A DNA stretch of 62,586 bases, filler included, from Nemertoderma westbladi (Eukaryota; Animalia; Xenacoelomorpha): NCBI GenBank assembly GCA_032718475.1. It is 4 parts of 4 records of this genome, joined end to end, with 100 filler letters (N's around TTAATTAATTAA, not from the genome) between each part and the next. Parts side by side here need not be neighbours in the genome. Positions count along the whole stretch, not along the records: positions 1 to 20,004 come from JAUCBJ010004143.1; 3 more parts are not named here. One strand, 5' to 3'. Position numbers and translations under genes: made by a program. Each line of letters opens with the position of its first letter. Within the stretch, counting starts at the first letter, position 1. The notes under the pieces were generated by a model. The model saw only the letters and a program-made list of their open reading frames with translations. It was not told the origin of the DNA and made no database searches. Positions 1 through 54,592 of the stretch are shown one piece after another.

Positions 1-3000
1 AATATTAATAGTACCATAGTGGATAATTCTAACCAAACTTTTGTTGCAGGAAATAATATTTTGCCCGATAGTAGTAATTTAAATCCGAGCCATTTTAATA
101 TGAATGTAGGATTACTATTTAAATTATTTCCTACATTGTAGGAAATAATTTAAATAGTAATCCCGTTTCGAATTTACAAAATAATTCAAATATTTTATAT
201 TTAGATAAGCAAAATAATTTAAATAATAATCCCGTTTCTAATTTAGGTGTACAAAATAATTTAATTGATTTAGAGGATAATATTGGTAATGGTGCTATTA
301 ATATAAACGTGGCGGATGTGCGTGGCCCGGCAAATGAGAGCCTGGTAGGCCACGTAGTTAGTAGGCAGGAGGTGGCGGGGGTGAGAAACCCCAGTGAGGG
401 CCTGGTAGGCCGCGTAGTTAGTGGGCAGGAGGTGGCGGGGGTAGGAAACCCCAATGAGGGCCTGGTAGGCCACGTAGTTAGTAGGCAGGAGGTATCGGGG
501 GTGAGAAACCCCAGTGGGAGCCTGGTAGGCCACGTAGTTAGTAGGCAGGAAGTGACGGGGTTGAGTCAACCCGAGGCGGGCCTGGTAGGCCGCACAGTAG
601 TAGAGGGAGAGGCGGGGGTGAATGGACCCAGCCGCAGTGGGGTTAGTGTGTCGACTAGAGAGGGGTGTGGAGTGAAGCAAGAGATGGTGAAGTAATAGGT
701 GGCGAGTGGGGGGGGGGGGGGGGGGGGGGGGCTACAGGAGCCCCACAACGAGAGATTAGCGCGAGAGGGGGGGGGGGGGGGGGCAAAGAGTGTCCCACAA
801 GCGTCGGCGGATAATGCGCTGGGCAAATTAGGTGAACCGCAGCACCTGGCGATGGAGAATAGTAGGGGGGTTACGAATATCCCCAGCGGCGTGCGATCGA
901 GCAGAGAGAGACAGGTTGACGTCGCGAGAGGGCGAGCAACGAGACGTCGAGCCCAATCAGAAGAGGGAAGAAGAGCAGTGGAGTTTAACCGGGAGGTCGA
1001 TGAGAGATCTCACGAGCGGGGATACTGCACTGCAGAGAGAAAAAGGAAAGAGAGTAGAAGAAGTGTCGTCGCGAACGATAGGAGAGCGAGGACGGATAGC
1101 GAGCTGTTAGTAGTAGAGATGGAGATGGAGAGTCAGTGGGGTCGAACTCCGGGAGATTGCCGTCGTCCCGGGAGACGCGACCTGACGAGGCGTACTATGC
1201 ACCAAGAGAGGGGTACGGGATGTACCGGTACGAGGACGAGAGCAGTAGAGGGGATCGAAGAGAAACTTCCCAACGGGAAACACCTGCCGATCGAGAATAT
1301 GGTAGCCGCGGGGAGGATTATTCGAGAAGGTTAAACTTCGACCCCGAGCGACACATACAGACTGGAGGACATACTGTAGGCCTTACTGCACATACCATAG
1401 GCCACGCTGGAAGAGATAATGTAGGCGATAGGATAGCGCGGACCACGGGATTAAACCCGGAGGTCGCGGAGTACATACCGGCAGGTAGGCCAGAAGTGGA
1501 TAGGCCTATACCGGTACCAGCACAGCAGTATGACTACAGCATGCAAGGACATAACATATATCCAGGGGAGGGGAGAGTTATTGCGGATAGGTGCATGGGC
1601 CCCAATATATTAACATCCACCCCAGTATCAAACATACCGGTGGGGGGGGGGGGGGGGGACAGGGTGACATTCCCCCATCACAATATCAACAATACACCTC
1701 AATAGGAATAAGAACATCGAACCCCTTGGACGAGAATAGATCGTGCGACACCGAAATATGGAGGGGGCCGCTACCCCCGATGATATATCCAAGCCAAAGA
1801 TAGGCAGCGAATAGGACGAACGGGCCGCACCCAACAGGAGAATCTATACAGCATCCATCGAACCCATTGCAAGCACAAGCGATGGGAATGGCCACATTGA
1901 TCGATGCATTAAAAACCAGGATAGAGTTACCACCCGTGGAACCATTTAAATTCGATGGAAGCAGGCCGGAAGAATACCTGCAGTTTCGGCGCATGTATAG
2001 CAATGAAATACTAACGAAGAATTTGACACAAGCGGAGTGCCTAAAGTATCTGCAAGTGTATACAGGAGGCCCAGCATACGACATCGTGAGGCAATACCAG
2101 GGCATCGAGGGCGGCTTCACGACAGCATGGCGGGCACTAGACAGGGAGTACGGGCACCCGGCCAAGATCATCTGGCAGACCCTGAGAGGTATAACATCGG
2201 GTGGCCTACAGGATAACCCCGTCAGCAAAAAGACATTCGCGAACAAAGTTGAGAAGGCGCTAATCGTGCTAAAGACACTGGACGCACCATACGAACTCAA
2301 CGCGTCTAACAACATCACCACGATAGTGCAGGCACTGCCGATGTGGCTGCGCAACAAGTGGAGGAAGATCGCTTTCTCCGCTCGAGACAAGAAGGGTGCG
2401 GAACCGGGTTTAGAAGAAATGTCGAGCTTCTTAAACTATGAAGCCGAACTAATAACGGACCCAGTCTATAGCGAGGATAGCCTGGGAAAGGGACCAAAGA
2501 CCGAATACCACAGGCCGAAACCAGAACATAAAGCGGCGAACGCATTGCCAAAGCTCAGACAGTCACTGCCGTACGCAGCAACGCAGGGGACTACCAGTCC
2601 ACAAGTAGCCGGGGGTAAGACCACATCATGGAGCGGACAGGGGAAAAATAATAACACAAATAAACATAACCCCAGCACACCCAGTAGGCCGAACCCAAGC
2701 AATAAGAACAGTAGGGACTTTGGTACGAACGCAAGTGCGATATGCAGCGCACTGTATAAGGACGGCTACAACCCAAAGAACAAATGCCAATTATATACAA
2801 ATTCACTTCATCAGACCATGAACTGCAGGTATTGGCAAGCGCTACCCTGGTCGGAATACGCGAGGAGAAATAAAATTTGTTCTCGATGTGTGATGAGTGG
2901 ACACAAAGCTAGCCAATGCAAGGAAACACCAATCAAATTCGGTCAAAGTAAAGGGCAGACGATGGCAACGAGCACCATAGGGGCAAAGAAGAGAGGAACG

Positions 3001-3558
3001 GTACTACTCAGGGTAGTATCAGTGCGGGTGATTGGGGAAGGCAATCGATCAGTAACCACGCTGATGCTGGTCGACAGTGGAGCAGCCTTCACGTTGGTTG
3101 AGAATTGGGTGGCCGAAGAGATAGGATTGAGGACGGGGCCAAGTAGAATGGCGGTAACAACCATCTCCAGCAAAGATGAGGTCCTGGAGATGAGGACCGG
3201 TCGGTGCGGGATAGCAGCGATAGCACCAGGATGCGACTACGGGGCGACCATCGACCCCGTCCAGGTGATAGAGTCGATAAATATCAACGCCAGGCGACCA
3301 ACCAACATCGAGGTCGAACAATATAAATTCCTGGACAACATCGACTTCTCAATACCAGATGTGGACATTAGGAAGGTATCCATTATAGTAGGAATGGACT
3401 GCCCGACGGCCCACGAGAGAATGCAGACGGTCTTCCGATACCGTTTAGGATGTCAGAGACATCAGGATGCATATTCGCGGGAACTATGCGGGAGATGGAA
3501 GACAAAGGAGCGGAGGAGCAGCTCAGGAGACTGCTCAGGCAGGATTTTGAGGGATTGA
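1..3558 (+). pseudogene. gag: BEL/Pao gag + aspartic protease, broken into ORF pieces (309-695, 699-1334, 1136-1705, 1867-3558)
   Basis: BEL Gag core LPPVEPFKFDGS..YLQF..LKYL..AWRALDREYG, knuckle CSRCVMSGHKASQC, protease LVDSGA. The upstream part is N-rich, repeat-rich and RE/RS-rich and is split by stops and frameshifts. Confidence 0.85.
337..600 (+). repeat. 60-bp in-frame tandem repeat (~4.4 copies) in gag N-terminal region
   Basis: CCTGGTAGGCC recurs at 341, 401, 461, 521, 581. It encodes 20-aa units like EGLVGHVVSRQEVAGVRNPS. Confidence 0.9.
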
Positions 3559-3663
3559 AAGAGACCGGGCCGGGGTCGGAACCTCGGTAGAAGATAAACA
3601 GGCTTTACAGAGCGTAAAGGAATTGATGACATGCAATGAGGGGCGGTATACCATAGGGATGGT

Positions 3664-6600
3664 ATGGAAACTACGAAATTACCACTACCCAACAACAAAG
3701 GAATGGTACTCACGAGGCTTCGTAAGTTGAAGCAAACGCTAAAACGGAGCCCCGAAAAGAATGAGTACATTCATAAGACGATTAAGAAGTACGTCGAGAA
3801 AGGATGGGCCGTAGAGTTACCGGTCGATGAACCGAACACGGACAGGACCTATTACCTGCCACTCCATGTGGCTCTAGATCCGAAGAAAGGTATACTGCGG
3901 ATGGTAGTTGACGCGTCGGCCAAAACCGACGGCAAATGCCTAAACGATTATCTGTTGGAGGGTCCCAATATCTATAACTCAGGGATCGAGGTCCTACTCA
4001 TATTCAGGAACAGGAAACACGCCTTCACCTGCGACATCGAAGGCATGCTCAACCAAGTCCGTGTAACGGAAGAGGATAGCGACAGTCAGCGCTTCCTATG
4101 GTACAACGGTGACGAGGAACCGTCGACAATACCGATGTATAAGATGGTAGTACAGAATATGGGAGCCAAGTCATCTTCATTTACGATGACTGTGGCCGTA
4201 AGGGACACGGTAGAAGGGAAGGAAGATAATTATAGCGCCAAAGCCGTCAATATGATTCGACGCGGCTTCTATGTAGACGACGGGATGGAGTCTAGAAATA
4301 CGGTTAAGGAACTACTGGATACGGGGCGCGAGGTTCGCGACATCCTAAAAGGATCCGGGTTTAACCAACCAAGTTCCAATCCAGCTCGCAAGAGCTCATG
4401 AAAGCCATAGAGGACAGGAGGCCAGAGTCGACCATGGATAATCCCACGACAGCCAAGGGACAGGACATGGTGAACAAAAGGGTAGAGTCCCAGCAGAAGG
4501 CACTAGGGATCGTGTGGAACAGAGAGACAGACGAACTGAAGTACCAATTGAGCCAGGAGGGCGCAGACATCCACACAAAGAGGGGCTATGTGTCGTACAT
4601 AGCAAGGATATATGACCCCCTAGGCCTAGCATCCCCATTACTAGTCACAGGGAAACAGATACTTAAGAAAGTATACAAACTAAAGGAAGAATGGGACACA
4701 GAGGTCCCGGAAGAGATCAGCAAGCAATGGAGCAAGTGGACAGAGTTTAGAACAGATGGGGACATACAGCATGCCGAGGGTGTATTTCCCGAATGGGGAC
4801 ATGACGGACCTGGATCTACACATGTTCTCCGATGCGTCATTGGAGGCATATGGAGCGGCACTCTACCTAGTACAACGGGAGGGGGCTCATAAGCCCAGGC
4901 TTGCATTCAGCAAAGCTAAGTCGACGCCGCCAGATTCAGCATCAGTCCCGAAACTTGAGTTGACAGCTGCGAGGTTAGGAGTAAGGGCCACAGCCTACTT
5001 GATGGATGCTATTCCCAACATAGTGGAAACACACTACTGGATGGACTCCATGGTAGTGCTTGGTTGGCTACACAATGAGAGGACGAGATACCCTATATTC
5101 GTCGCAAATAGGGTGGACGAAATAAGAGCCATGACGGAATTGGAAAGGTGGCACTACTGCCCAACGGACGAGAACCCAGCAGACTTGTTATCGAGGGGCG
5201 TTAACACGCCACACTTTCTTGAAGAAGGAAGTATTGTGGCAACACGGGCCGCAATTTCTGAACGATAAGACAGCCTGGCCGCCGATGAGAAAGGTGGACC
5301 CGGGCTCAGGAGAAGTAGCATTAGAGGAAGAGGGAGGGGATTCAGAAGGTGAAGAGATATATAGCCAGATGGTGAGGGAGATAAGGGACGTGCAACCAAA
5401 ACCGGAAGAACTGTGCGATAACCCGACGGACAAACTCCTTAGCTACAGCTCAAGTTGGTATAAGACCAAGAAGTTAGTGGCGTACTGGAGAGCCTTCGGG
5501 GATTTCCCCAAGGGAGTCGGCAAAGACATAAAAAATAAACCGCACATTGATCTGGAGGGAGCGGCCAAGGCCATCATCTGCTACGAACAGAAAAAGAATT
5601 ACGGCGACGGGGTGGAACGCGTCGGTAAACAACAGCATCTCCGACCGGACAGTGAGCTGATCGCGCTGTCGCCACAACTCAATGATGATGGAATCTTAGT
5701 AATGAACTCTAGGGTGTTGAACAACAACAGTATCATCATTCCACCAAAGCCCATCATCATCCCTAATGGTTCGCCGATAGTCCACCAGATCATCTGGGAC
5801 TCCCACAAGTCGATATTGCACGGGGGCACCAACCGAACCCTCACGGAGATATGAAGGACCTTTTGGGTCAAACAGTTAAGAAAGAAGGTAAAGGCGGTAG
5901 TGGGGCAGTGCCAGACCTGCCGACGAACAAAGAAGGAGCGAGCCATACATACACATGGCGCCACTACCGATTAAGATTAAGGTGATGCGGCACACGGAGA
6001 AGCGCTACGGCATTATCTTTGTATGTAACAACACGCGGGCGGTAGGGATAGAACTCGCCCAAGACGCAACCGCGTCGGCATTAATCAATGCCCTTGAGAG
6101 GTTCAGAGACCACAAAGGTGGGACGATCGCAGTAATATACTCCGACAACGGAACCAACTTTGTGGGGGCAGAGAACGAGCTGGCGGATGCCTTGGACATC
6201 ATGGAAGGGGAGGAAGTCAGGGCAGCCATGAGAAGACAACAGGTGAAGTGGGAGAGGAGGACACCGTATGCTCCGCATACTCTAGGATGCGTCGAGAGAC
6301 TCGTGGGTAGGTCCAAGCGTCTGATGATGAAGTTGATGAACACCCACATGGTAACAGAGGACGTACTGAGGACGGTACTAGCAAAGTGTGAGGGTATCAT
6401 TAATAGCAGGCCGCTATATCCAGAAAATGATGACCCAGAGTTATTAGATGTGCTGACGCCCAGTCACTTTCTAATGGAGAGGCCGACGACCATCGACATG
6501 CGGGGTGTAGACCCAGACGATATACACTCCCGACAGAGTTGGAAAGTCGCCAAGGCGATAAGCGCAGAGTACTGGAGGAGGTGGGTCGAGGAATAGCAAG

Positions 6601-6857
6601 AAGATATAGAAGAGATAGGAGAAGCAAGTGGAGATATACAAATAGGGAGTTGAAGGAGGGTGATCGTCACGGACGATACCATCATCAACAACCAATGGAG
6701 ATTGGCGAGGGTTGTGGGCACTTACTCCGATGAGGACGGAAGAGTCCGATCGGTAGAAGTGCGGATAGGTGGTAAGATAGGAGCGAAAGATAGGAAGACC
6801 TACAGGAGGGCTGTAGGAAAGTGCTGCCTGCTAGAGGGCGCACCTTATTTGAGTTGA
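3664..6857 (+). pseudogene. pol: BEL/Pao pol (RT, RNase H, integrase), frameshifted
   Basis: Successive ORFs 3664-4401, 4398-4892, 4756-5268, 5219-5854, 5955-6596 and 6660-6857 carry collinear BEL pol motifs. There are several frameshifts and stops. The integrase lacks the usual GVDYFGP segment (it reads MAPLP|IKIKV). Confidence 0.93.
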
Positions 6858-7009
6858 GTTTAGTCGTCCAAATGTTGGACTGAGGGGGGTGGGATTGAGG
6901 GCGAGACGCCCTTGCCACACATAAATAAAAAAAAAAAAAAAAAAATAAATAAAGAAAGAGAAAGTAATAGTACGTAGTAGGTACGTAGTGAGTAAAATAG
7001 GCAGATAGA

Positions 7010-7420
7010 AGTTAGTAAGAGTTAGTAGTAAGAGGGTACGTAGTACCATTAGTTAGAGTTAGAAGTTAGTAAGAGGGTACGTAGTACCGGTTAGTAAGAG
7101 TTAGTGGAGTTAGAAGTTAGTAAGAGGGTACGTAGTACCGGTTAGTAAGAGTTAGTAGAGTTAGAAGTTAGTAAGAGGGTACATAGTACCGGTTAGTAAG
7201 AGTTAGTAGAGTTAGAAGTTGGTAAGAGGGTACGTAGTACCGGCTAGTAAGAGTTAGTAGAGTTAGAAGTTAGTAAGAGGGTACGTAGTACCGGTTAGTA
7301 AGTGTTAGTGGAGTTAGAGGTTAGTGAGAGGGTACGTAGTACCGGTTAGTAGGAGTTAGTTAGAAGTTAGTAAGAGGGTACGTATAGTACCGTTAGTAGC
7401 AAGAGTTAGTGGTAGGAAGG
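7010..7420 (+). repeat. 51-bp tandem array (~7-8 copies) between pol and ORF3
   Basis: AAGAGGGTAC(G)TAGTACC recurs at 7071, 7122, 7173, 7224, 7275 and 7326. Confidence 0.9.
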
Positions 7421-7914
7421 TATGTATGATATAAAATATAGTGAGAGTTAGTAGAGATTAGTTAGGAAGTTAGTAGAGATAGTAGTGAGTAGCGAGAGGG
7501 GGGCACGTGGGTATAGCTGGATAAATCGTGTAGGCCACGCGACGCATACTGTTGTACTGCACAGGCCCACAGAGTAGGCCAGAATGCGGATTATAGAATA
7601 GAATAATCCACTGGCGGAATACTGATAGCACAGTGGTAGGATTAAATTAAATTAAAATAAAATTAGAAATTAGACAAAATATGGTAACAGTAGGAGAAAT
7701 ATTCTGGAACATAATTAAAGTAACGGACAGAATTACGAAATTTAGTACAATTTGATAGATTTAGAAAATTAGGTAGGAAAATTAGGCGATAACTTAGGAT
7801 TCTGTGAGAGATAGGCCATTGTCGAACTGTATAAACCATCGTAACTTTATCACTCATCTGTACTGCGCCTTGGCAAGGCACTACCTTACAGGTTAGCGAT
7901 TGAGAGAGTTCGAA

Positions 7915-10499
7915 ATGGCGGAGAAACTTGTCCGAAAGAGAAAGGCGGAGTTAGGAGGAAAGGAGATACTGGTGGATTTCACCGAGAGGCATCCGGAAGA
8001 AAAGACGAGGGGATACTATGAGCGGTTAGAGAGAGGTCACAAAGCGCGAGTGCTACAGGACCATTTCAGTGAGGTGCATGAACAGCGGCTGGTCGGGACC
8101 TACGGGACGCCATCGCTGGACAACGCGATCTTCGAGCATTTCCACTACATGGTAAAGGGAGATGAGGCAAAGTTCGGGATTCCGAAGTACGCAAAGGAGC
8201 CACCGAGGAAGGATTGGAAGAGGTTCGTAGAGTCCATCAGCAGGGGAGGATACATGGTCCTAGACGATGAGGGGACCGTGGAAGATGAGGAAGCTTCGAG
8301 AAGAGGATCGGCGGGATCGGCCAGAACCATACTCCTACATTTGGCCGCGCCAAATGGGGACATTTTCCTATTTGACCTGGGAACGTATGGGAAGAAGAAC
8401 AGGCCAAAGTTGAACCAGTTGCCAAAGGCGGTGCAAACCCTAGTAAGAGAGAAGTCGACGACGAGAAGGTGGGATCGGCGATCCGCGACGATGCGGAGAG
8501 ATTCATCGGTCCGGACACCCCCAACCTCCTGGACATGCAGATGGTCTACATGGCTATGACAGCACCAGACGGGTTGGGACTAGTGGAGAACGCAGGCCAT
8601 TGTGGAGCGGTGGCGATGGGCCAGCTAATGGGGCTCGTGTGTCACAAACCAATGGACAAGGGTAAGTTCAGAGAGGAGTATGGAGTGGAGTTAGCGAACT
8701 CGCTGAAGTGGGGAGCGAGGCCAGGGAAACAAGAGGTGTATCAATTCTGGAGAGGAGCGATAAAGGTATATCAGAAGCAATATATCCTGCAGGAGGACTG
8801 GATAAGGATAGGTTTGCTAAACCTATTCATGACCGTCGTCATTGAGAGAGAACCAACGGCATTCCTGCTATCGGGATCACCCCTGAACTACAGAAGAGCC
8901 TTCAAGACGGCTTTTGAGGGTCTGGTAGACCACCCAGGGCTGAAGGGTGAGTCGGTATACTATAACTGCCGACATCTAGTAGACGGGGAGGTGGATATGC
9001 CATATCAGAGGTGGGAGCAGCTAGAGGCGGATAGACGAGAGGCGAAGCAATTGGAAGAAATCGCTAGGCGAGAAAGGAGGGAGACAGAAGAAAGGGAGGA
9101 GGAAGCAAGAAGGGAAAGCTACGGGTTCGAGGAACAGGCGACCTTAGATGAACTTCGTTGGACATCATCAGGGAGTTCGGGCGAGTCTCTAGGGCGAGAA
9201 TTAGGGTGGACGGTGGGATCACCGAAACAGTCGACATCGGGATTGCAGGCGACGCCCATACCAGCGGGCGCCGAGGGCGATTATACATTGAGGAGGCCAG
9301 GGGAGCTGGAAGGATGGAGGATCACGGGCGAGAGCCAAGGTGGGAAGGGACACAATGGGTCCACCGGTATACCGGGGTTGGAGTCACTCCCAGAGAAGGA
9401 CGAGGATGACGACGAGTTCGGAGAGATGCCGCCCATCGGGAGAATCGGCCACTCAGACACGGACTGGGTTGGCGGGAGGGTGGTGACGGCCAGTGGGGCG
9501 AGAGCCTTCTGGGACAGACCCGGCAAGCGGGCCTGGGTGCATGAGGAGCCGGCGATGGATTTCGCGGGGAGCACCATCAGGTTGGGCGAACAACCGGGAA
9601 CGGCACCACGAGTAGTATTCGGAGAGATGATGCCCGGGAGGGGCGAGGAGATAGACGTGGACAGGGATGCTAACGTCCAGAAGTTCGCTTACCAGCGACT
9701 CCACAGACCGCGGAGATCGCTTGGGACGAAAGACGACGTGGGGCGGGAGACATTGGTGCTCGGCTGTGATTACTGTGGGAGGCAACCCCACCAGGAAAAG
9801 AGCTGTTTGTACCGATTCCAGAAAGGGACTAGTTGTCTCTACTGCCGCGAGTCGAGCCACAGGATGGGGGCGTGTCCACGGTTGCACAACCGATGTTCCA
9901 TTGTTCCGATGTGCAACTTCCGGGGGCACTACGGACGCCAGTGCGACTGGATGGACAACGAAGAGAAGTTTAGGATCTTCGAGGAGTGGGCCGATGTCGG
10001 CGCCATGACACGGCAGCGTATGAAGGCCCAGGAGTTCAGGTGGGGCTTCTTTAATATTAACCAGGAGGCCCACCTGGAGATTATCAAACGAAGACTTCCG
10101 TTTACCTACCAGGAGGTATCAACGGCGGCGTCGTACGCCGGGGTGATAAATACGCAGAGGTAGGCCTATTTGGACAGGTGGACGCCACAGAACCGAGGGG
10201 AGTTCAGAAATTTCTTGGCGGAGCATGTGCCGCGGGCGATGAAAGTGATCCTATGGGACGCCACTAGGGGGAAACAACAGGGCCATTCGGAGGGGCCACC
10301 CGCGAAGCGATACCGGGAGCTGATAACACCAGCGCCCAAGGAGTCGACGACCGGGATTAGTAGAGAGGTGATGGCGAGGGTCAGGAGCCTGAAGGGAGAT
10401 AAGACCAAGTTAGCGGCAGTGGCCAGGAAACGACCAAGGGAGGAGGACGACAGAGGGAAGGACTTGAGATGGTTCCCAAAGTCAGGTGGAACGAACTAG
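7915..10499 (+). pseudogene. BEL ORF3: DEDDy 3'-5' exonuclease-like domain + acidic/coiled linker + three CCHC zinc knuckles (~860 aa once one frameshift near 8460 and one TAG at 10161 are repaired)
   Basis: ATG at 7915 in gaaATGg context. ExoI-like GYMVLDDEGT (D at 8263, E at 8269), then ILLHLAAPNGDIFLFDL, LPKAVQTLV..KVGSAIRDDAERF (ExoII-like), LLDMQ, and W....YQKQYILQED (ExoIII-like). Knuckles CDYCGRQPHQEKSC, CLYCRESSHRMGAC and CSIVPMCNFRGHYGRQC at 9765-9944. ORFs 8469-10163 and 10170-10499 share one frame. Confidence 0.8.
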
Positions 10500-11180
10500 A
10501 ACTTGGGTGTGGGATGCCTGGAAGGCACCACGTGAGAAGTATGAACTCCTAAGTGCAAAATTTAAATAATTAAAAGTGCAATTAGTATGTAAGTATGTAA
10601 TAATCATTAGTTTAGTAAGCAAATATAATCAAAGTAAGTACTATAGTCATATAACTTTTTCCAATTAGCTACTGGGACTGGGGACCAGTTGACTATGACA
10701 GACGAGACGTTGGACGACATCACACTTCTTGAGTGCGACGGCACAGGAGGGGGGTGAGACTCGTCAGGAGTGAGTGGGTGAGATAGGGGTTGAGTAATAG
10801 CGCGGAGAGAGTGCGGGTGCAATTCAAGTGTGGGGGGGGGGGGGGGAGAAGTAAGAGGCAGAGTGAGGGACTAGGAGGTCCGGGAGTTAGAGCGGAAGTA
10901 AAGAGAAGTAGAGGAGAGTCAGGGTGAGAGTGGAGGAGTTAGAGTGGAGTTAGAGTGGCGAGAGTGTTGGGGAAACAAAAATTGTGTGAGAGAAGCCCAC
11001 AATCAGCCCGACACGGGACGCCAGATGTCTTGGTGCAAGATAGATAAAGTTGCACCAAGGCAGGGTAGCGATATCATACCCATAGGGAGCGGCCTGGAAA
11101 GCCGGCTCCGAGTAAAATAATTCCACCCCACACCCGATAGTAAATCGGGATCCAGCGGAATTGTAGCGCACTAGAGGTGG

Positions 11181-11218
11181 ATGCTATCTTCTCACCGGGA
11201 AGATAGCATAGGGGGGAG
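11181..11218 (+). promoter_or_regulatory. Perfect 11-bp stem-loop followed by polypurine tract of the BEL element
   Basis: ATGCTATCTTC (11181-11191) pairs with GAAGATAGCAT (11199-11209). AGGGGGGAG follows, directly abutting the LTR TG at 11219. Confidence 0.85.
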
Positions 11219-11797
11219 TGTTAGCGAATTCAATTCTGCTAACCACCCCACAAAGTTGGACAAGCAGGGCCTTTAAGCAATATTGGGGAGTATGAGGTTG
11301 ATTGCCAATCGACCTCGTATCACTCCAATAAACGGGGACGACAAACCCCAAAGGGCCACACACACAACGGGGGTCAGAGGTTACACCTCCGGGAGAGGGA
11401 AAGTGACAGTGGAGGGGGAGAACACTCCCAGAGAGATGGGAGGGCGAGAATTAGGTTATTAGCCAATGGGGGGCAGGCATCCGCTGAGTAATATGGCCAA
11501 CCTAGAGCAGTATATTACCAGTTGTTGTTTCTCATATCATTTACTTAGTTAGTCAGTTCAGTTAGGGCGGAACGGCAACTTTTATTACCGTCCACTGCCG
11601 CCACCATCATGAACTATTTTACCGGTGTTTCATTCACTTACTTAATTCAATAACTGTGTCTATGCTTTATTCATTCACTATATTTATACATATTAATCAA
11701 CAACTTCAGAACTCTCAATCCAATAAACTCTTTTCACACACGGCGGGGACACGTAAATAAAACAACCAACCGGTCGGGATTCCTGGATCCCGTAACA
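11219..11797 (+). repeat. 3' LTR of BEL element (579 bp)
   Basis: Begins TGTTA right after the PPT and ends TAACA (inverted termini). Contains CCAAT near 11463, a TATA-like TATATTA near 11511 and AATAAA at 11722. Sequence after 11797 switches abruptly to another repeat. No second copy in the window to confirm. Confidence 0.8.
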
Positions 11798-13442
11798 ATT
11801 TCAGACATATCGCCATCTAGCGGCAGACTGGAGAACTGATGAGATGACAGATAACCTTATCACAAAGGGGTAAGCGTGGAAGATCAATTTCATGCATTTT
11901 TCCCTCTAGCAGCAGACTGGAGAACTGCAGACCAATCACCGACCCCACCAAGACACAGCAGCAGCACACTAGGCTACTGAACTGACACAGGACTGCAGGA
12001 TGTATTCTAAACAGAGCACATACTGATACATAGACAGACAGAAATACAACATATATATTTGACAAGTTTCAGCTTGAACGGATTATAAATAATGGAAAGG
12101 TTGTCTCACTTTAGGACATTTCGCCCTCTAGCGGCTGACTGGAGAACAGATGACCGATAACCTTCTTCACAAAGATTCAACATGTGGTATAGTAGGGCCT
12201 ATAGTACACACTTTGCTGAGATTCAACCATTCGGCTTAAGGTAAACCTGTAAACGAGTTAGAATCACGGAAATGGGAGAAGGTTTTCATCTTCAAACATT
12301 TCGCCCTCTAGCAGCAGTCTGGAGAACTGCAGATGAATCACCCTTCCTCAAAAAGACACAGTATGTAGTCATGGTCTGGTACTTATATTCCAAGACTCCG
12401 CTTAAACAGATTAAGATCAAGTAAAGATACAGGGGGGGGGGGGGGGGAGTGGAAGCTTATCACTTTCATACATTTTGCCCTCTAGCGGTAGAAAGGAGAA
12501 CTGCAGACCAATTACCGACCCCACCAAGATACAGCAGCCGCAGCAGCACACTAATGCAGGATATATTCTAGCTGAGCACATACTGGCAAACAGACAGACA
12601 TACAACATATTTTTGACAACTTTCAGCTTGAACGGATGAAAAATAATGGAATGAGCCAAGGATTTAACTTTCATACATTCGGCCCTCTAGCGGCAGACTA
12701 ATGAACTGCATACAGATTAGCCCCCTTTGAATGACACATGACAGCTAATGGTCGGACTAATACAAATATTACAAGTTTCAGCATGGTCTGTTGGTCGGAT
12801 CCAGACTGGAATCAATACACTTTGCGCCGGATTAACCCGGCGCACTTTACAATAAAAGCGCGCCAATGTGGCGCGTGGCGCGCTCGAAAATCGTAAAGTG
12901 CACCGGCTTTGGCACGTCTGCACGTGGCGCTCCCAAAAATAAAAACCGGCGCCAATTTGTTGGTTTAACAACTACGGAAGTGCCTTAAAAATTGCAATAG
13001 CTGTTCAAAAATTTCGGCTCGCTTCGCTCGCCTTTCTTTTTTCTGTTGTATGGTTACTGCTGAACAGGGACATGCAGACATGTACAGCTCTACAGCAATA
13101 CTGACATTGGCAGACTGGTTACACTCCTTCAAAATTGAAATTGCATTGGCGTGGCGCTCTTCAAAATTGTTTCAAATGTGCGGCGCACTTAAAAATTTCG
13201 TTGGCACAGGGTTTGCTTTGAAATTGCATTGGAGCGTGGCGCGCATAAAAATTGGTTGGCGCACTATCCGGCGCACTTTTTGGATGGATTCCATACAGGG
13301 GTCGGATTAAATGCAGAGATGGTATATGGTGGATGGGAGGACATTTATTAATGTTTGACATGTAGCCCTCTAGCGGGAGACTGTTGTACTGATGACAGAT
13401 GGTCTCGAACAGTCTCTAAAATCTCAACTTTTGGTCTTATTG
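11798..13442 (-). repeat. Repeat-element copy with 7 CTCF-type motifs (same family as 60850-61997)
   Basis: GCCCTCTAGC(G/A)GCAGACTGGAGAACTGCAG variants near 11811, 11901, 12122, 12302, 12477, 12682 and 13365. 13412-13442 is the reverse complement of the unit at ~61043-61075. Confidence 0.85.
12801..13299. mobile_element. Non-autonomous DNA transposon (hAT-like MITE) nested in the CTCF-motif repeat
   Basis: Exact 8-bp TSD GGTCGGAT (12793-12800, 13300-13307). Imperfect TIR CCAGACTGGAATC / GATTCCATACAGG. GGCGC-rich subterminal motifs. Confidence 0.75.
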
Positions 13443-20978: not shown

Positions 20979-23060
20979 TTAGTTCTTGGGAAAACCATAG
21001 TAATCGGGGCTGTGTCGTTGACGAGTGCTGCGACGTGATTCACATGTATTGTTGTCTTGGGGCTTTGGAGTTGTTGGAACTGGTTCATCGTTGGGAACTA
21101 TTTCTGCCACAGGAGAGGAACTAGGTTTATCTATCACCTGGCGTACTGAAGTTGGGCGTATAGTGAGCGGAAAACTGCGGCTCTCATGTGGGGCCACAGA
21201 TTGGGGTGGAAGACGAGCAGTCCGGTTGACGGCAATGGTGTCCCCAGTTTCAATACGCACTACCTGAGGTGTTAGAACTTCAGTGATAGTAGTTTCCTTG
21301 TGAAGTGGCAGGTGACCTTTGAGAGTCGGTCCACTGTTACGAATCATAACTCGTTCCCCTACCTTTGGTTGCCATGATGATGCCCTCACCTTGGCTTGAG
21401 TCTCATGCATCTTCTTGATAGAGTTATGTCGAGCATCATGGAGTTGAGTCCTTGAACCTCGGTACAAAAGTTCCATAGGAGAAAATCTAGTAGCACTGTG
21501 AACTGTAGTACGATAGTCACGCAGTGCATCAGGTAGGCAATTATACCAGGATGAAGGGGGAAGGTTAAGATCTTGCTGAATATATTTTATCTTTCGTTGT
21601 ATGGTTCCATTAAATCTTTCACAAAGTCCATTACCACTTGGGTGATATGCTGTGGTTCGTTTCTTGATAATAGAGTGTGTCTCACAAAAATGTCTAAACT
21701 CCTGTGACTCAAATTGTGAGCCCCAGTCAGATAAAATTGACGAAATATTTCCATATCGAGAAAGATAATCCCTCAAACAACGAATTGCTTGAGAGGCTGT
21801 GATGGAAGTTAGTGGATAAACCTCAGGGAATCGAGTAAGTGTATCTATCATAACTAGCATGTACTCATAACCCTCCTGAGTGCGTGGTAGTGGACCCACA
21901 AAGTCAATAGCTACGAGCTCCTGAGGCTGTGAGCCAACTGGGGTATGGCCTGGTTTGGCAGTAGCCCATTGAGGTTTGAGACGTGCACAAGTGGGGCAAC
22001 CCTTTAAAAATTCTTGCACATCCTGGTGGTAACCTTTCCAGGTCACCTTCCGCTTAGCTAGTGTTTCCAACATGGCATCACGACCCTTATGAACACCATG
22101 CACATCCTTTAACAAGGCATATTTCCAATCTATAATTTGTTGCCGATTCTCCTGTGAATTAACATCTTGTACTGTGCAACAACGGGTTAATGCATCTGCA
22201 GCGACATTGTCACAACCCTTCCGTAGTTTGACATCATATGAATAATCATTAAGAAGCAATTTCCAGCGGATTAGCTTGGCTGAAGGTTTAGGGTTATCTA
22301 AAACGGCAGCAAGGGCAGCTGAATCAACATATAGATTAAAATGCGAGCTGTAGAGAAAATCTTTTAGCTTTTCAACGCAGAATACTACTGCCAGGGCCTC
22401 TCGCTCAGCGATGGGTAGTCGTTTCTCACACGGTATGAGCAAACGGCTTATAAAAGAGACAGGGCTTCCATCCTGTGATAATACCCCAGCGATGGCTACA
22501 TCAGAGGCATCAGTTTCTAAATCTAAAATCACAGTAGGGTCAGGTAATAGCAAAATAGACCGAGATAGAATGTCCTTTAATATATTGACAATGATAATGT
22601 GATCAGGTGACCAAAGAGAACAGAACAATGAGCCAGAACTATTTATCAGATCATAAAGTGGTTGCGATAGTGTAGCAAAGTCTGGAATATATATGCTCTG
22701 TACCAATTCATAAAGCCAAGAAACCGTGAAAGTTCATCTCTTGAAGTTGGTATTTTATAATCTACTACAGGCTGAATTCGATCAGGATCTGGACCAATAT
22801 GTCCATCTTTAAACACATGGCCAAGAGCATAGCCAGTATCAGTAAAGAACGTGCATTTGCTGCCACGGAGGGAGAGATTGTGCTCACGGATTCGATCAAG
22901 TAACAGCCGGACTCTTACATCCAACTCATCCAAAGTTTTCACACCAACTAAGCCATCATCATTATACGCACTAATGTGGGAACAATTGTTAAAAATAGCC
23001 TTACTAACACGTGGGCACAGGCACAAGCATTTTTTAAGCCAAACATAACCCTGTAAATTT
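20979..23060 (-). pseudogene. pol: Gypsy pol: N-terminally deleted RT, RNase H, integrase
   Basis: MFGLKNA, SAYNDDG, SKCTFF..LGH, RFLG; ETDASD..IAEREALA; HHCC, IDFVGPLP, LSDWGSQF, NGLCERFN. Frameshifts near 23015 and 22690. Confidence 0.9.
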
Positions 23061-24344
23061 CGCCCACGTAAATTTCCCAGCAACTGAGAGTTGGTTTCCA
23101 TCAGCCGCCATAACCCTATGTGGAGAACCAGAAGTGCTAAGGTGTATCCGAGTAGCAAACAATCTATTAAAATATTCTAAACTCATCAAAGTAAGATCAG
23201 CTGCTGAGTCAACAATCCCGGTAACTGATTCTAGGGGAAGCTTCAGAGTAAGATGTTTAAAGGAATTGTGTTTGGCAGAGGAATGGGAATCAATATTAGA
23301 ATTTTCCCCATCCTGGGTCACAAGGCCATAACTAGACCCAACCCAATAAGTACCAAAATAATCACAATCAGAACTGCAATCATCTGAATGTCCATCATAC
23401 CCAGTCACTAGATTTGCAGCTGTAGGCCTACCAGAGCGCCTGTCACTAGTTGCTGTCTTAGAAAAACTTCCTTTTTCAGAGCGAGGACAGCAAACTGCGA
23501 AGTGATTTTCCTCATGACAAAATTGACACCGTTTTCCATATGCAAGGCAGTGCTTTCTGCCATAAGCATGTAAGGTCCCACAAAATTTACAGTTGATCTG
23601 ATTAAACATAGGTCTCTGGGGTATTGCAGATTGTCGTTCATATACAACAGTGCCGGGCTGAATAGGTTTAGTGCCAGAGGACCGCCGATTATACTGAGTA
23701 TTTGAACCACCAGCTCGGGCAATTAGAATATTATCAGTCAATGTGATGCTGCTACCGGTAGGTTTTACCCCATTACCAATAACTTGCTGTGTAGAAGTAG
23801 CAGACTCATATACACGGGCAATGTCCAGAGCCTTATCCAGAGTTATCAGTGTCTCCTGGAGCTTGGCTTTCTGGGTAGTTTCACTATGGACCCCACACAC
23901 AACTCGGAAACAATAAATAGCAGTAAGCAATTCATCCTTTGACAAAGCAGAAAATTTGTAACTCTGGCCAAGATTAGTTAAGGCAGAATAAAAATCGTTA
24001 ATACTCTCACCACTTTTTTGGCTGAGTGAAAAAAATCGATGAAAGGCTAGCGATTAGTTTGAGGGTGGTATACAGAAGGTCTGAAACCTATCTAAGATGG
24101 CAGTATAGGTTGTGGCATCTGTATTAGGTAGATTGAAACTGTTATATACTTCAAGTGCAGCATCCCCTAACAAATTAAGCAGTGTTGCCTTTTTAATATC
24201 AGCGGAGACGTCAGTACCAGTTAAGCCAGCAGCAATAAAATATATTTCTACCTTTTGTTTCCACAGTTTAAACTCACGTTCTTTATCGATAGCATTGACA
24301 TTGAGAGGTGTAGGAACATTCAAAGTTCGTTTCCCAGTCGCCAT
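23034..24344 (-). pseudogene. gag: Gypsy gag + partial protease
   Basis: ORFs 24344-24054 and 23945-23034 share a frame and are separated by one TAA. FKLWKQK..ATLLNLLG, zinc knuckles, protease IVDSAAD. Confidence 0.88.
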
Positions 24345-36954: not shown

Positions 36955-39900
36955 GTTAGTTCCGTTAGTACTGTTCAGTTTATATGTTGCAGCTATATCT
37001 GCAACTCCCCCCCCCCCCCCACCCTTCCCCTGGACACTACACTATGTTCATTTTCTTATATTTCCTTCCCACATTATGCGAATCTAATGTAGGCCCTACT
37101 TATTTTACATTTACTCATCTTGTTTGGTGTTTTTTTTATTAGTTATAATTTGATTTTATATTTCTGGGTAAATAAATTTTAAAAATAAATTTTTATCCGA
37201 ATTCTAGATATTCCAATCCAATTTGACTCCTCAGTGATATATGTAGGCACCTTGATATGTCTGGTGTTAATATTAAAAGATCCAGTATTTGAGATGTCCG
37301 ACCCCGCAGCATTCTTTCGGACATTGCGATATGGCACGTTTTCAGCCGATTGCCGTTTTGTAAGAAACGTGGAGTCAACTGCGGAGATTACCACTATGCT
37401 AACCGTCGGTCTAGTTAGCTATCAAATTGCGGTGGCACCCAGATCAAATGCTGTGCATGTGAGTCTCATATTTACAGATATAATCCATCTGTGGTACATA
37501 GCAACGCGATTGATAACAGGCCGTGAAGTATACGGGTTGGAGATTCGCGATCGTAAGAAGGTCCGCAGTCTATACATAAAATCCTACGCGTTCGTTATGA
37601 ATATTATATCTATAGTTCCATTGGATACTCTTATAAGATTATTCCTTCCGGATACCGGCGGCACTAGTACAAGTAGTGTTGAAGCATTACTGGGGATACA
37701 TCGATATATACGACTCATAGAATTCTTCCGCATCCGTAGCAGATGGGAGGGGAGACCCGGAGCTAACATTACGTTACTTAAACTCAGCGGATTTGGTTTT
37801 TTACTTGTTCAGTGTGTCCATCAAATCGCTTGTCTCATGGTTTACATCGACTGCAACATTGTGTACCAGAAGAGTGATGCTGATGGGGGTATACATCATA
37901 TCGCAGTGTGCGACTCAAACTCTTGGGTTGAACTCATAAAGCAGAAACAAACCTTTGCTAAGTTAGACCTCCACTGGTCCCGTGATTGCTATGTGGTCGG
38001 AATTTACTGGGCTATAATAACAAGCATGTTGGTTGGCTTCGGCGATATAACCTTACCAAATAACAAAGAACAGATGGTAGCGATATTGACAATGCTATGG
38101 GGGTCATTTTGTATGACAGGTAGGTGGTATGTGTGTGTATACAATAGGATAGTACTCTATACGAAATTGGACCGAACTGCATCGAAAACGTGGCGAACTG
38201 GACCGCCAAATGAAAGATAATCTAAAAAAAACCAGCCATGGAGATAAGTGAAAATAAATAAAAATTGAAATTAATATGGTCAATTTATACATTGTAAATT
38301 TAATTGCGTTTAAAATATCGCTTAATTAAGATTATTTGCAGCTCCTCCACTGCTTTTACCAGTCTACCTGTTGAAGGTCTGCATGTGTATATATTGCAGT
38401 GCACAAAATACTGTATTTTGTGCACCGGTCTGCCGGTATATTGTTGAGTAGATACGTTCAATGAGAGGTAGACCTACAATATTGCAATATGCTGACATAA
38501 GTACGCTAAGGGTAGCTTACTTGTCAGACACATACAGACTGACAGACAAGTTAACATTATTATAAGGTATATGCAGGTAGGTCATAGGTGGGCCTACTTA
38601 GGTATGACTGCACTATTAAGCCCGGTACCGGTATCTTTTTATTATCTATACTACTGTACTTCGGCTTCCGGTACCGTCTTCCATTTCCATTGCTGCATTG
38701 AATACAACTACCGGTACGCACAATACTGCAATCTATTAACGCTATAAACCCAGATACCTGCTACCGGTACCCCTTCAGCAGTGTTTTATGTGAAGCAAGT
38801 AATTTTAATTTAGCGACATATTATAAGCAACTAAATTTACAATGTCTAAAAAAACCAAATGAAATTCAATATTAATTTTCACCTGTCTGCAAGGATGGTT
38901 GTTTTAGATTATCTTTCATTTGGCGGTTCAGTTTGGTCCATATCGCCACACTTTCGTTCCAGTTCGGTCCAGTTCGGCCCATATTCGTGTAGAGTACTAT
39001 CCTATACAATAGGACCATTCCAAACTTACGTACACACTTATATTTAATATATACATTTAATATAATTCGTTGAAAACAGAGAAGGTTAGCATGGTCCTGT
39101 TTGGCCATCCGTGCAGGGATGGGTATGTTCATGTTCAATACTGTAGTCAAACTGTATTGCTAAGTTAGGGTATTGCTTTTCGTAAAGGTGGGAGAAAATT
39201 CAAACGCGTTTTAGATTTTTTTTTACTTCTACTTTTTCGAATACGTTATTTTATTACATAAAACGCGCAGTTTTCAGTTAATATCTACGGATTTAGAGAT
39301 CAAGATATTTTACCGTAAATTAACTTAAACTCTTCCTTACATACATATGCTTCTAGTAACCGACGCATGGCACAGTGTGTTATGTACTTCTGTTAGGGCC
39401 TACTTTTAAATATTATATTGCTTCATTAAATTAATTCAAATACATACTGCTATGGCTAACGCCATAAATCAGGAAGATTTTCTCGATTTTATTGCTAATG
39501 ACATAGAGAAACTCGATAGAGCAACATTGCAGCTACAGTACATACCCAGGCATGCAGTTCACCTGTATACATTCATGGTTTCCCTGCAGAAACAACTGTC
39601 TGTAATCCTCGAGTCACAAGTCAAACTGAGGATCCTGCCAGATCCTTTGAGCTGTGGAACATTCCTTTAACAAATCGAACAAAGGCAAATAGAAGATGCA
39701 CAATGATGTAATCTCCGAGAGTAACAAGGGCATGGGAGGGAGGAACAATGATGTCACGAAGAATTGGCTGAGACACAACAATTGATAGACCACATCCAAC
39801 ACGAACCAGTTTCGGTTTATAGAGATATACACAGCATGTGCAGCGGCAACCTTGACGCAATCTCACTAGGTCAGCCTCTTCTAATTTAATACTTATGTTG

Positions 39901-42900
39901 AAGCATTTCTCTGTTGTCGCACAACTTGTTCCAATTCCAACAAATCTCTCTGGATTACGTTCATTTATTGAAATAGTGAATCAACCAAACAGCTTGGTTC
40001 TTTTTCAAAAAGATAAGTTCAGCTGCTGCACCCTCTCATCCACATCTCAAGAAGGCCAATATTTTGGACTTCATTCCCACATTAATGCTGTTAAACTTGC
40101 TCTTGTTTCCCCACAAGTTCTCACACCCTTTCATTCCAATCTTCAAGTGGCCTACATACTAACTCTTCTCGACTAAGATGACTTGGTTTCGCTTTATTAC
40201 AACCAATTTCCTCGGATTATCGTAATCGTACCCTGTGTGGATTGCAATTTTTACAGATATTTGGAATGGCAATATACAGTCATTGAACTTGAAACACTCG
40301 CAATCGCCTGGGCAGTAAAGAAATGTCACCTTATTGGCATCCCTGTAACATAATCGTGAGTGATCACAACACACTTATACCATTTTTCAATGATAAAACT
40401 CTCTCTTGACGCCATTGAGAATCCATGGTTGGGGCGACTCAAGGAGAAACATGCCTTCCTGGCAGATTGGAAGAAAGGTAAAGTTCACTATGCACCAGAT
40501 GCCTCTTGTGCTCATGCCCCAGTCTATAATCCCACATCGGGTGATGTTGTTTTTTAATATGGGATTAACACCAATATTTCTGAACATATTAATGCAACTG
40601 TCAATGCAATAACCGACTATAATTCCTGGCTTAATGACCATAATATTCAGGATTTGAAGGATAATGCTGTTGCTGATAAAATGTACTAGCAGTTAACAAC
40701 AATGTTGCTCAAGTAGGTCACCTTGAGAGGAAAATCCTAACCCTAAATCCAAAAACGGGGGTCCAGAAATTCAGAGTCTCTCAAAATAATTCACAGGGGC
40801 ACGCGTGTTCGACACCCACCAAACCATTACGGATATAAAAACTAACGCTGACTAAATCCCAGCAGGGATGACGCTCAAAACTTACTGCGAAGGGTTAAAA
40901 CTGCTCGACTGCCCGCACTCTCTTCCACCCACCATATTGCCTACGTGCCGGTCCACCTGCCCACCCACCCACCCAACCTACTACCCACCGTCCCTCATAC
41001 CCACCCACGCAACCTACTACCCACCCACCCTCATACCCAGCCACTTGCCTGACCACCCACCAATCCAACCACTCACAAGCCTTCCTGCCGGCCCACCTTC
41101 ATACCCATTCACCAGCAAGTACGCACACCCGCCCACCCATCAGTCAGCCAATAAAGTCTTCAATTCATTTAGGTTTGCTGAATGGAACACTTGCAGCAAT
41201 TATGGCTGACAGACATCAGAATACTGCAAGTTTTACAAAGCACAGCAAGAAAGTGAAGCAATATCTCAAAGCGATCAACTGTCCTGATGATATCAACAAA
41301 ACTGTTATGGATCATTACAGGTTTGTACACTTTTGTGATATTTATCATTATAATTTCACCCTGGCGAAGTAATATAAACATAATTTAACAGAAAACTATA
41401 CATTTCACGCAACACGGAATACACCGTGACAAGCCCCCAACCCCCCCCCCCCCCCCCAAACTGTTCTACAAATCTTAATAAAATTGCATGAAATTTGAAA
41501 CAGTTTCACTTTCATCCTCCTTAGTGGGTGAGCCAGGAATTGTGTCCATCGATATTGCGTCAGTCGTACTACAGTTATTCTCCAACCTTAATAGAGATTT
41601 ATAGTGGAAAAGCTGGCCGTGCAAGGATTCCAAATATCTACAAATATTTGAATTTTGTTGGTAAATAGCTGAGTTATGGGAATTCGAATGTTGCATGTAT
41701 TTGCTACCGCTGCAGGCCATTTATTCTATTTAATAATACACATGTTCTAGAACATTTTGTTTATGTATGAATATCCATGTACTAGTCATTAGGCATTGCT
41801 CCCAAGCTACTATGAGATAAACGATGGCATTTGGATGGAAGAAGTTGAGGATACGAAAATGAACTTACTGACTTGAACCGATTTTATTTCTAATTAAATT
41901 AATTAACTATTACGTGGATACTTAACAATTATATGGAGAATATCACTATGAGATAAGGCGTTCTAGAATTATAAGGCGATGCAGCCGTGCGGGACTGGAG
42001 GCGTTCTAGAATTATAAGGCGATGCAGCCGTGCGGGACTGGAGGCGGACTGGAGGCAAACTATTATTTGTTAATCTTCATAATTTATAATCACCCATTTT
42101 ACGAATACTAACAAATTTTAGACAATTATATTCTGGAAATATAATTATTATAAATTAATTATTGTGTTGTACGTGTTTTCGATAAGGCGTTCTAAACTGT
42201 AGATCATGACGGCGGAATTTAATAGCTAATTTGAGTGTTTAAGTTACAAAGCAAAAACACACTGGAAATACTGTATAATGTAAATGCAAAATCAAAACAC
42301 TTCTACATACTGTATTTATCAAAATGATCTTTAACTTTTGTTCTTATAACCCATCAAATTGATTGCATGTTAAACATTCGGCACTAGTGTGTTATAGGTA
42401 CACCCCCCCTCAATTTTTTTTACTAGCTAGTTTTTGCTATTTCTATTTATGAACATGTTCTAGAACATGTTAGCTATTAAAAAAATATATATATATGTTC
42501 TAGAAAAAAAATTTTTGTTCTAGAACAATTTTAAAAAAAATTAAGAAAATTAAAGTACTATTTTTATGTTTTAATAATGTTCTAGAACATGTTAGCTATT
42601 CAGAACTAGAAAAAAAAAGTTCTAGAACAAATAGTTTTTGTTCTAGAACAGTTCAAATGGTACTAGTGTGTTATAGCTACACCCCCCCTCAAATTTTTAT
42701 TACTAGCTAGTTTTTGCTATTTCTTTTTTTTTGAAATGTTCTAGAACATAAAATACATTTGAAAAAAAATAATAAAATGTTCTAGAACAAATATTTTTTG
42801 TTCTAGAACAAAAAATTAAAAAATCATACAAATTTTATTTTTTGTTAGTTTTTTTTATTTGATGTCAAGGAAAGTGAATTTTCTAGAATAATATAATTTC

Positions 42901-54305: not shown

Positions 54306-54592
54306 CAGTAACATCAATTAATTGCATAAAATGAATATGAATGTCATGTATATTTCTATACATTGTAATACAGTATTACTGAAAAATTAAGCATTCAGAG
54401 CGCCGATAAGTTTACATAATGTAACAAAATTATGTTATGTGTAAAAAGGGTAAAAAGGGCACTCACTAATTAACAATATAAATTAATTGCAGTTACTACA
54501 ATAACAATAACTGTACGCTAAATAATCCTTCACTTACCATATAATGCAGAATCATGGCCTACTATATTTATACGGCCTAACAGGTCACTTAG

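Follow-up and report, generated by a model that had tools for sequence, protein, structure and literature searches.

Separate third open reading frames (ORF3s) for DEDDy-type 3'-5' exonucleases have been published for the Ty3/gypsy elements Juno1/2 and Vesta2/5 of bdelloid rotifers and for Athena/Terminon elements, as the accessible part of that work describes (Rodriguez et al. 2017, PMC5408684); the available portions of PMC5718144, PMC6431247 and PMC6338049 cite these rotifer cases. BEL/Pao is not mentioned in the accessible part of the rotifer paper, and the Belpaoviridae profile of the International Committee on Taxonomy of Viruses lists gag, pol and env as the only genes, flanked by long terminal repeats (LTRs) of 0.2-1.2 kb (PMC8742986). 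Here, we describe an ORF3 in a decayed BEL/Pao LTR retrotransposon of the xenacoelomorph Nemertoderma westbladi (assembly GCA_032718475.1). It lies in a stretch of 62,586 nucleotides made of four joined parts of this genome (positions 1 to 20,004 come from JAUCBJ010004143.1), in the following called the window, and encodes an EXD2-like DEDDy exonuclease domain together with a Cys/His-rich domain. We are nearly certain of the position and two-domain anatomy of this gene, of its DEDD fold, of its linkage to and co-descent with the BEL pol, of purifying selection and of the existence of active-type, DEDDh and catalytically dead lineages.

Like the rotifer ORF3s, the gene in the window is a separate third ORF 3' of pol which encodes an RNase D-like DEDDy nuclease and has no envelope features. 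Compared by description only, the carrier here is a BEL/Pao element, the motif is mostly D-E-D-D whereas the rotifer ORFs are described as DEED, a Cys/His domain of about 130 residues is fused to the nuclease, and DEDDh-type and dead lineages exist. With the Belpaoviridae profile (PMC8742986) the element shares the LTR, the polypurine tract, the order gag-protease-reverse transcriptase-RNase H-integrase (gag-PR-RT-RH-IN) and the domains Peptidase_A17, DUF1759 and DUF5641; in contrast, its third gene is a nuclease-zinc protein instead of env and its length of more than 11.8 kb exceeds the stated 4.2-10 kb. The novelty supposed in a first inspection of the window (the sequence-only reading) therefore survives only in part. 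The concept of a third-gene nuclease is already known from rotifer gypsy and Penelope-like elements, but no exonuclease ORF of BEL/Pao was found in the open PMC and bioRxiv literature, which does not cover Repbase, Dfam, GyDB and most subscription journals. The word "exonuclease" does not occur in the main text of PMC3118150 as far as this is accessible, and its supplements may hold members of the ORF3 clade. What appears undescribed is the presence of such a gene in BEL/Pao, its EXD2-like nuclease and unrecognised zinc domain, and the division of the family into active, DEDDh and dead lineages.

The sequence-only reading had placed a frame of about 860 codons between pol and the polypurine tract and 3' LTR of a BEL/Pao element, on the same strand and with a composition like that of gag and pol, interrupted by one frameshift and one TAG. 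All of this holds (Table 1). The breaks are located near 8445-8465 (frameshift) and at 10161-10163 (TAG), and the window copy itself is broken. The order PR-RT-RH-IN with DUF1759 in gag is that of the BEL/Pao type (Peptidase_A17 with E 2e-15 and 9e-21, rve with E 1.9e-4, RVT_1 weak with E 0.18), and the D-E-D-D residues of RNase H are present. The stop codon of pol is TGA at 6855-6857; the purine skew of the element extends to about 11 kb, and the purine run terminates at 10964 in agreement with the polypurine tract of BEL/Pao elements. The 5' LTR and primer-binding site of the element fall outside the window, within which no second LTR copy was found. Tandem repeats of 60 bp occur at 273-632, inside the upstream gag-like frame.

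Table 1. Features of the BEL/Pao element in the window
Feature	Position	Strand	Evidence
Decayed BEL/Pao LTR retrotransposon copy	1-11797	+	Pfam DUF1759 and Peptidase_A17 above cut-off; composition; LTR end
gag core and protease frame	1804-3558	+	Pfam: DUF1759 E 3.5e-9, Asp_protease_2 E 7.4e-5
pol (RT, RNase H, integrase), several broken frames	3640-6857	+	Pfam
Non-coding spacer between pol and ORF3, 1.06 kb	6858-7914	+	A tract and 51-bp tandem array (6990-7397)
ORF3, about 860 codons, two breaks	7915-10499	+	Reading frame; third-position composition resembles gag and pol
EXD2-like DEDDy 3'-5' exonuclease domain	8200-8860	+	Profile of relatives; hhalign
Charged Gly/Pro/Ser-rich linker, poorly conserved	8861-9734	+	Composition; equivalent region of a relative with pLDDT <50
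Cys/His-rich domain	9765-10160	+	phmmer; 84-sequence conservation; AlphaFold2 model
Basic C-terminal tail past the in-frame stop	10164-10499	+	Reading frame, composition
Purine-rich stretch, ends in polypurine tract	10840-10964	+	Sequence
3' LTR, 833 bp, TGT...ACA	10965-11797	+	Limits inferred from termini and host repeat starting at 11796

Relatives were collected in two ways. The longest unbroken piece of the window, used as phmmer query against 1.84 billion representatives, gave 28 matches at E <= 0.001 with the best stretch always in the C-terminal Cys/His region; P0004, P0007 and P0026 among them resemble ordinary knuckle proteins, and nine longer matches were aligned to yield a 9-sequence family profile. 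A degenerate pattern of the zinc motif found at least 120 matches in metagenome contigs and none in viral contigs. Eighty matches with flanks were used as loci, of which L014 and L071 were excluded because they fit the pattern by chance and had no profile hit. Word-indexed protein searches returned 0, 1 and 7 matches, none carrying a name, and the cluster names were uninformative.

In the exonuclease domain of the window the catalytic residues are ExoI D 8263 and E 8269, ExoII D 8490 and ExoIII Y 8781 and E 8793. All five motifs quoted from the sequence are thus present in order, but the ExoIII acid in the Y-x3 register is this E and not the adjacent following D; the same conservative E is also found in P0022 and P0028. 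An iterated profile, built only from natural relatives that had themselves been found via the C-terminal domain alone, matches the window domain with 57.5 bits (E 2.4e-17) as compared to 2.5 bits for the best of 1000 shuffles, which bears out the proposed DEDDy exonuclease domain. In hhalign the two halves of the window domain, taken as unbroken pieces, each match the 9-sequence profile (P 3.8e-5 and 3.2e-5). D56, E58 and D239 are invariant in 20 full-motif relatives, which were selected by that motif. Against the Protein Data Bank (PDB) the 9-sequence profile finds EXD2 (E 2.6e-9), trypanosome RNase D and WRN, and a profile of the 20 full-motif domains finds EXD2 (E 2.6e-12) and WRN (0.23); Rrp6 is not among the PDB matches of the family profiles. 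By these profile comparisons EXD2, and not a protein of the PIWI-interacting RNA (piRNA) pathway, is the nearest solved sequence. In the best match, human EXD2 (PDB 6k17), the alignment spans ExoI and ExoII, and ExoIII falls in register. Unlike this host protein, ORF3 is mobile, carries additional sequence between ExoII and ExoIII and continues into a long linker and the Cys/His domain.

A DnaQ/RNase D fold is predicted from the model of the relative P0028, to which the window is joined by the profile match given above. This model is of low confidence overall (mean predicted local distance difference test score, pLDDT, of 48) with values of 70-84 in the N-terminal domain, and Foldseek matches it with probability 1.0 to Egalitarian, trypanosome RNase D, RICE1, EXD2, NrnC, RNase D and Rrp6, as expected for the RNase-H-like DEDD fold that had been anticipated. 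The Pfam family DNA_pol_A_exo1, also suggested as a check, failed: its cut-off is reached neither by the window pieces nor by any of 42 locus ORF3s, with a best score of 23.3 bits in P0011 at a cut-off of 23.6. Pfam reported no nuclease or knuckle family in three window pieces, and phmmer of window pieces against the PDB gave nothing relevant. Pfam detects no HRDC domain in the 42 ORF3s, whose nuclease it misses too. The linker is likely disordered, judging from the relative's model. The possibility that ORF3 is an env is ruled out since it has no membrane anchor and no envelope homology: the window ORF3 has no transmembrane-like segment (maximal 19-residue hydropathy 1.22), values above 1.8 occur in 5 of 49 relatives at scattered places, and Pfam detects no envelope family in the 42 ORF3s.

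Three zinc knuckles had been described at the C-terminus. The three patterns exist, two of them as exact CX2CX4HX4C and the third as CX5CX4HX4C, but all are parts of one larger conserved Cys/His domain of about 130 residues that also comprises a conserved helical extension (F-E-x2-A-D-x-G-x2-T ... W-G-F ... Y). AlphaFold2, supplied with an 84-sequence alignment, models the window residues as a compact domain with pLDDT 86 and a predicted template modelling score (pTM) of 0.81. Nine invariant columns of this alignment were imposed by the search pattern; in the nine phmmer hits, too, eight of them do not vary and the ninth hardly varies. Outside the pattern, conservation extends to five more Cys, a Tyr, a Thr, an invariant Gly and the W-G-F motif. 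The third site may be a non-standard knuckle because its last Cys is missing in 16 of 83 relatives and an extra His before it is retained. In Pfam, zf-CCHC is found at E <= 0.05 in 3 of 84 members and the window yields 0 families, whereas the 9-sequence family profile matches the knuckles of Lin28 and of nucleocapsid proteins. Foldseek (best E 1.7, Lin28) and VIA-align (best Z 2.7 among 48,161 chains) gave no significant result, so that the zinc domain has no significant match in Pfam, PDB profile, Foldseek and VIA-align searches, which does not by itself demonstrate a new fold. P0001 contains two tandem zinc domains and a degenerate nuclease domain.

Among the matches listed, a same-strand BEL gag-pol lies upstream of ORF3 in 36 of 39 loci when 3.5 kb or more of upstream sequence is available, in 31 of 33 from 4.5 kb and in 28 of 29 from 5.5 kb; with the window's own pol pieces as sole queries it is found in 30 of 34 loci. 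All 16 upstream ORFs scanned contain DUF5641 and 15 of them Peptidase_A17, and in local matches the pol of relatives is 25-44% identical to that of the window. In many loci a single unbroken gag-pol frame encodes 2,000-2,400 residues and an unbroken ORF3 follows as a separate frame; long open ORF3 frames are present in 49 loci, and in L023 two LTRs (797 bp at 95% identity) enclose pol and ORF3. No other element type was seen beside the unlinked loci in a scan of 27 of 129 listed ORFs. Among the matches listed, 58 loci have upstream sequence of 1.5 kb or more, and the exonuclease domain was detected in 54 of these. L035, one of the four others, does have the domain by BLAST to L043, and L047 and L059 appear to be without it. 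The latter two (L047:4079-6529 and L059:7012-9648) are BEL elements with a zinc domain, no detectable exonuclease and a long C-terminal extension common to both. With 1,300-1,550 residues, the ORF3s of L005, L051, L043 and L015 are enlarged by very long N-terminal extensions of low complexity. L022:5187-10931 is apparently internally deleted: most of pol is lost, and a gag remnant, DUF5641 and ORF3 pieces remain between two repeats.

RNase H has an intact D-E-D-D set in 23 of 23 elements, by which a replacement of RNase H by ORF3 is ruled out. A TGG-type primer-binding site is found in most relatives where this region is readable, and a self-priming role was set aside for this reason. The sequence TGGCGCCCAAC occurs near the gag start in 10 of 17 loci (L013, L029, L031, L037, L046, L062, L065, L066, L068 and L069, which diverge after these 11 bases), a one-base variant in two, and the site of L023 reads TGGTGCCGAAC. 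We take TGGCGCCCAAC to be a tRNA-Lys-like primer site. With RNase H and the primer site in place, core replication looks self-sufficient. The Belpaoviridae profile differs in giving 18 nt and tRNA Arg or Gly for the primer site, as compared to the 11-base start shared here (PMC8742986). A splice-acceptor motif scan of 21 loci and the window found none under the criterion used and leaves a spliced ORF3 message unsupported.

The tree of ORF3 follows that of pol. In 23 elements 11 of 13 pol splits with a Shimodaira-Hasegawa-like approximate likelihood ratio (SH-aLRT) of at least 95 recur in the ORF3 tree, while 10,000 label shuffles give at most 3; the window forms a long, unplaced branch among ORF3-bearing relatives in both quick trees. 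Ratios of nonsynonymous to synonymous substitution rates (dN/dS), rough values from 11 pairs at 60% identity or more, are 0.09-0.19 for the exonuclease in seven full-motif pairs and 0.26-0.28 in three dead pairs among three sequences, with one pair saturated; for the zinc domain they are 0.03-0.24 in nine pairs, with two saturated. From the agreement of the trees and the dN/dS of 0.09-0.28 it follows that ORF3 is an old, selected accessory gene. Thus linkage, co-descent and purifying selection support the original view of an integral gene in the env position. Catalytic residues are variable: 45 non-redundant domains covering all five positions comprise 21 DEDDy, 4 DEDDh and 20 without at least one catalytic residue, a count that may contain one misalignment (P0010). 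Among the dead domains is a complete 9-member clade that is supported in both trees and still conserved. In L010, L044, L077 and L079 the ExoIII Tyr is replaced by His, which makes a DEDDh-type motif within a DEDDy family.

The window's own family has further copies. Three sequencing runs from two studies contain 36-45% of the sampled words; in two runs the 3-kb ORF3 region is matched at 85% identity or more by 6,531 and 4,279 contigs with 30 of 30 bins covered, and over the whole element four runs cover every one of 30 bins. The family is therefore multi-copy, and ORF3 is present in diverged copies of it, as the sequence-only reading had required; contig depth is not equal to copy number here, and one run may be the window's own source. 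No contig in these runs spans pol to ORF3. At each of the two ORF3 breaks, both studies yielded contigs that depart from the window copy, and the breaks are thus not fixed in the family. In runs X1 and X3, which belong to two studies, contigs join window position 232 to 10212, skipping about 10 kb, which suggests by sequence an internally deleted derivative of the family.

As regards function, we lean towards a reading to which we give slightly less than an even chance, namely that ORF3 may be an RNA-binding and RNA-trimming factor of one BEL/Pao group that is aimed at host small-RNA silencing. The zinc domain would bind single-stranded RNA, the EXD2-like domain would trim RNA 3' ends where its catalytic residues are kept, and blunted host small-RNA silencing would be the most likely outcome. 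RNA binding by the zinc domain is quite probable by analogy with CCHC proteins and trypanosome RNase D, and nuclease activity is predicted, with nearly the same assurance, for the full-motif lineages including the window's family. More tentative is the target: host silencing RNA, which active forms would degrade and dead forms would hold or compete for, may be meant instead of the element's own RNA. Continued selection after loss of catalysis argues for a binding function with optional cutting. Host silencing RNA is favoured because of the nearest precedent in architecture, Trypanosoma brucei RNase D (PDB 7c42/7c45), which according to the accessible part of PMC7797062 combines a DEDDy nuclease with a C-terminal CCHC zinc-finger domain, acts as a host enzyme on guide RNAs and depletes them upon overexpression. 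It is matched by profile and by fold, but the domain pairing is likely convergent, as the zinc domains match only at knuckle level (Foldseek E 6.7). EXD1 and Maelstrom, inactive DEDD proteins which take part in piRNA biogenesis (PMC5408684, available part), are a further precedent.

Several observations weigh against this proposal or narrow its basis. No result here separates host silencing RNA from the element's own RNA as the target, and a role on own RNA would explain the strict co-descent with pol no less well than an arms race would. The 3' ends of piRNAs are usually 2'-O-methylated and resistant to such enzymes. EXD2 acts on RNA-DNA hybrids (PMC13425236, accessible part); as a trimmer of small RNAs it is not known. 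In rotifers, copy number was not clearly related to the presence of a DEDDy ORF3 according to the available part of PMC5408684. Because all relatives were found via the zinc domain, its presence throughout is a consequence of the sampling. A single series of assemblies supplied 67 of the 80 flanked loci, and pol is seen in 4 of the 11 true loci of other origin. Upstream of the motif, no match to pol occurs within 3.1-3.3 kb in L008 and L032 or within 10 kb in L012. Finally, dS is near saturation and the pairs used for dN/dS are not independent.

A possible, though in our view less probable, explanation is that ORF3 acts on the element's own RNA or on reverse-transcription intermediates, with the zinc domain as an extra nucleocapsid and the EXD2-like domain trimming 3' ends or binding and protecting RNA-DNA hybrids. 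It ranks close behind the silencing factor because EXD2, the nearest solved sequence, both digests and protects such hybrids (PMC13425236, accessible part), which would suit active as well as dead forms. The match of the family profile to Lin28 and nucleocapsid knuckles and the tight co-descent with pol point in the same direction. On the other hand, described BEL/Pao elements do with gag, pol and sometimes env (PMC8742986), RNase H is intact throughout and priming looks tRNA-type, and a separate ORF3 frame would need its own route into particles.

Rather improbable is that ORF3 serves mainly as an Egalitarian-like RNA-binding adaptor which in the germ line directs the export, localisation or oocyte delivery of element RNA, the nuclease being a leftover in some lineages. 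Egalitarian tops the Foldseek list, including an entry bound to I-factor mRNA, but the DEDD proteins there are nearly tied (E 1e-6 to 1e-5) and the sequence match to EXD2 is far closer (2.6e-9 versus 0.026). The gene occupies the usual slot of env, itself a function of spread, and both the conserved 9-member clade without catalytic residues and the zinc domain retained alone in L047 and L059 would fit an adaptor; against this, 25 of 45 relatives have a full catalytic set with dN/dS below that of the dead ones. EXD1 and Maelstrom have like Egalitarian the DEDD fold without catalysis, as in the dead ORF3 lineages; in contrast, these are host genes with a much weaker sequence match than EXD2, and the window's family has the full catalytic set.

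Proofreading for the reverse transcriptase, one of the roles first considered, has become very unlikely: the DnaQ-like fold and the full D-E-D-Y-E set of the window would allow it, but 20 of 45 relatives are without catalytic residues, often with intact gag-pol frames, and the dead clade is under purifying selection, by which the idea is largely refuted for dead lineages; moreover, the gene is not fused to RT and its nearest relatives are stand-alone RNase D/EXD2 types. Passive host cargo without function for the element, to which the broken window copy and the resemblance of the exonuclease domain to a host gene family might point, is hardly credible given long frames in 49 loci, dN/dS well below 1 and tree congruence with pol, and is refuted unless these are assembly artefacts.

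The remainder of the window contains further genes and repeats. Open frames of 343, 359 and 1276 codons at 37189-38217, 45470-46546 and 46920-50747 (+) belong to one or more host ion-channel genes with Ion_trans, Ion_trans_2 and cNMP_binding domains; to judge from these domains, the product may be a cyclic-nucleotide-gated channel of the multi-repeat type. A second LTR element fragment with gypsy-type RNase H and integrase domains is located at 20982-24053 (-), and a reverse transcriptase frame, probably of a long interspersed element (LINE), at 56280-57125 (+; RVT_1 E 2e-31). Directly 3' of the LTR, at 11796-13391, a 43-bp host repeat whose core is CGCCCTCTAGCGG-like occurs seven times, and the repeat is also found inverted near 61.2-61.6 kb; we presume that this core resembles a CTCF site. 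Long inverted-repeat families similar to miniature inverted-repeat transposable elements lie at 42400-44430, 54450-55470 and 62089-62586, a 28-bp tandem array starts at 52456, and a 315-bp tandem repeat spans 60967-61896.

In its widest form, the silencing proposal would state that an ancient, as yet undescribed BEL/Pao clade has captured an EXD2-like nuclease, combined it with a zinc domain of new fold and thereby gained its own suppressor of small-RNA silencing, with active DEDDy, DEDDh and pseudo-nuclease versions, and that gypsy and Penelope-like elements would have captured nucleases independently in parallel; we consider this unlikely as a whole. Apart from this, the zinc domain has been modelled with confidence and has no match in Pfam or the PDB. 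The DEDDy, DEDDh, dead and nuclease-less forms constitute a natural comparison set, and the many unbroken ORF3 genes make the question of function that arose from the rotifer work directly testable. With a nuclease-zinc gene conserved among widely diverged elements, a 3'-5' exonuclease as third gene is now found in a second LTR superfamily, so that animal retroelements have met a common problem repeatedly in this way.

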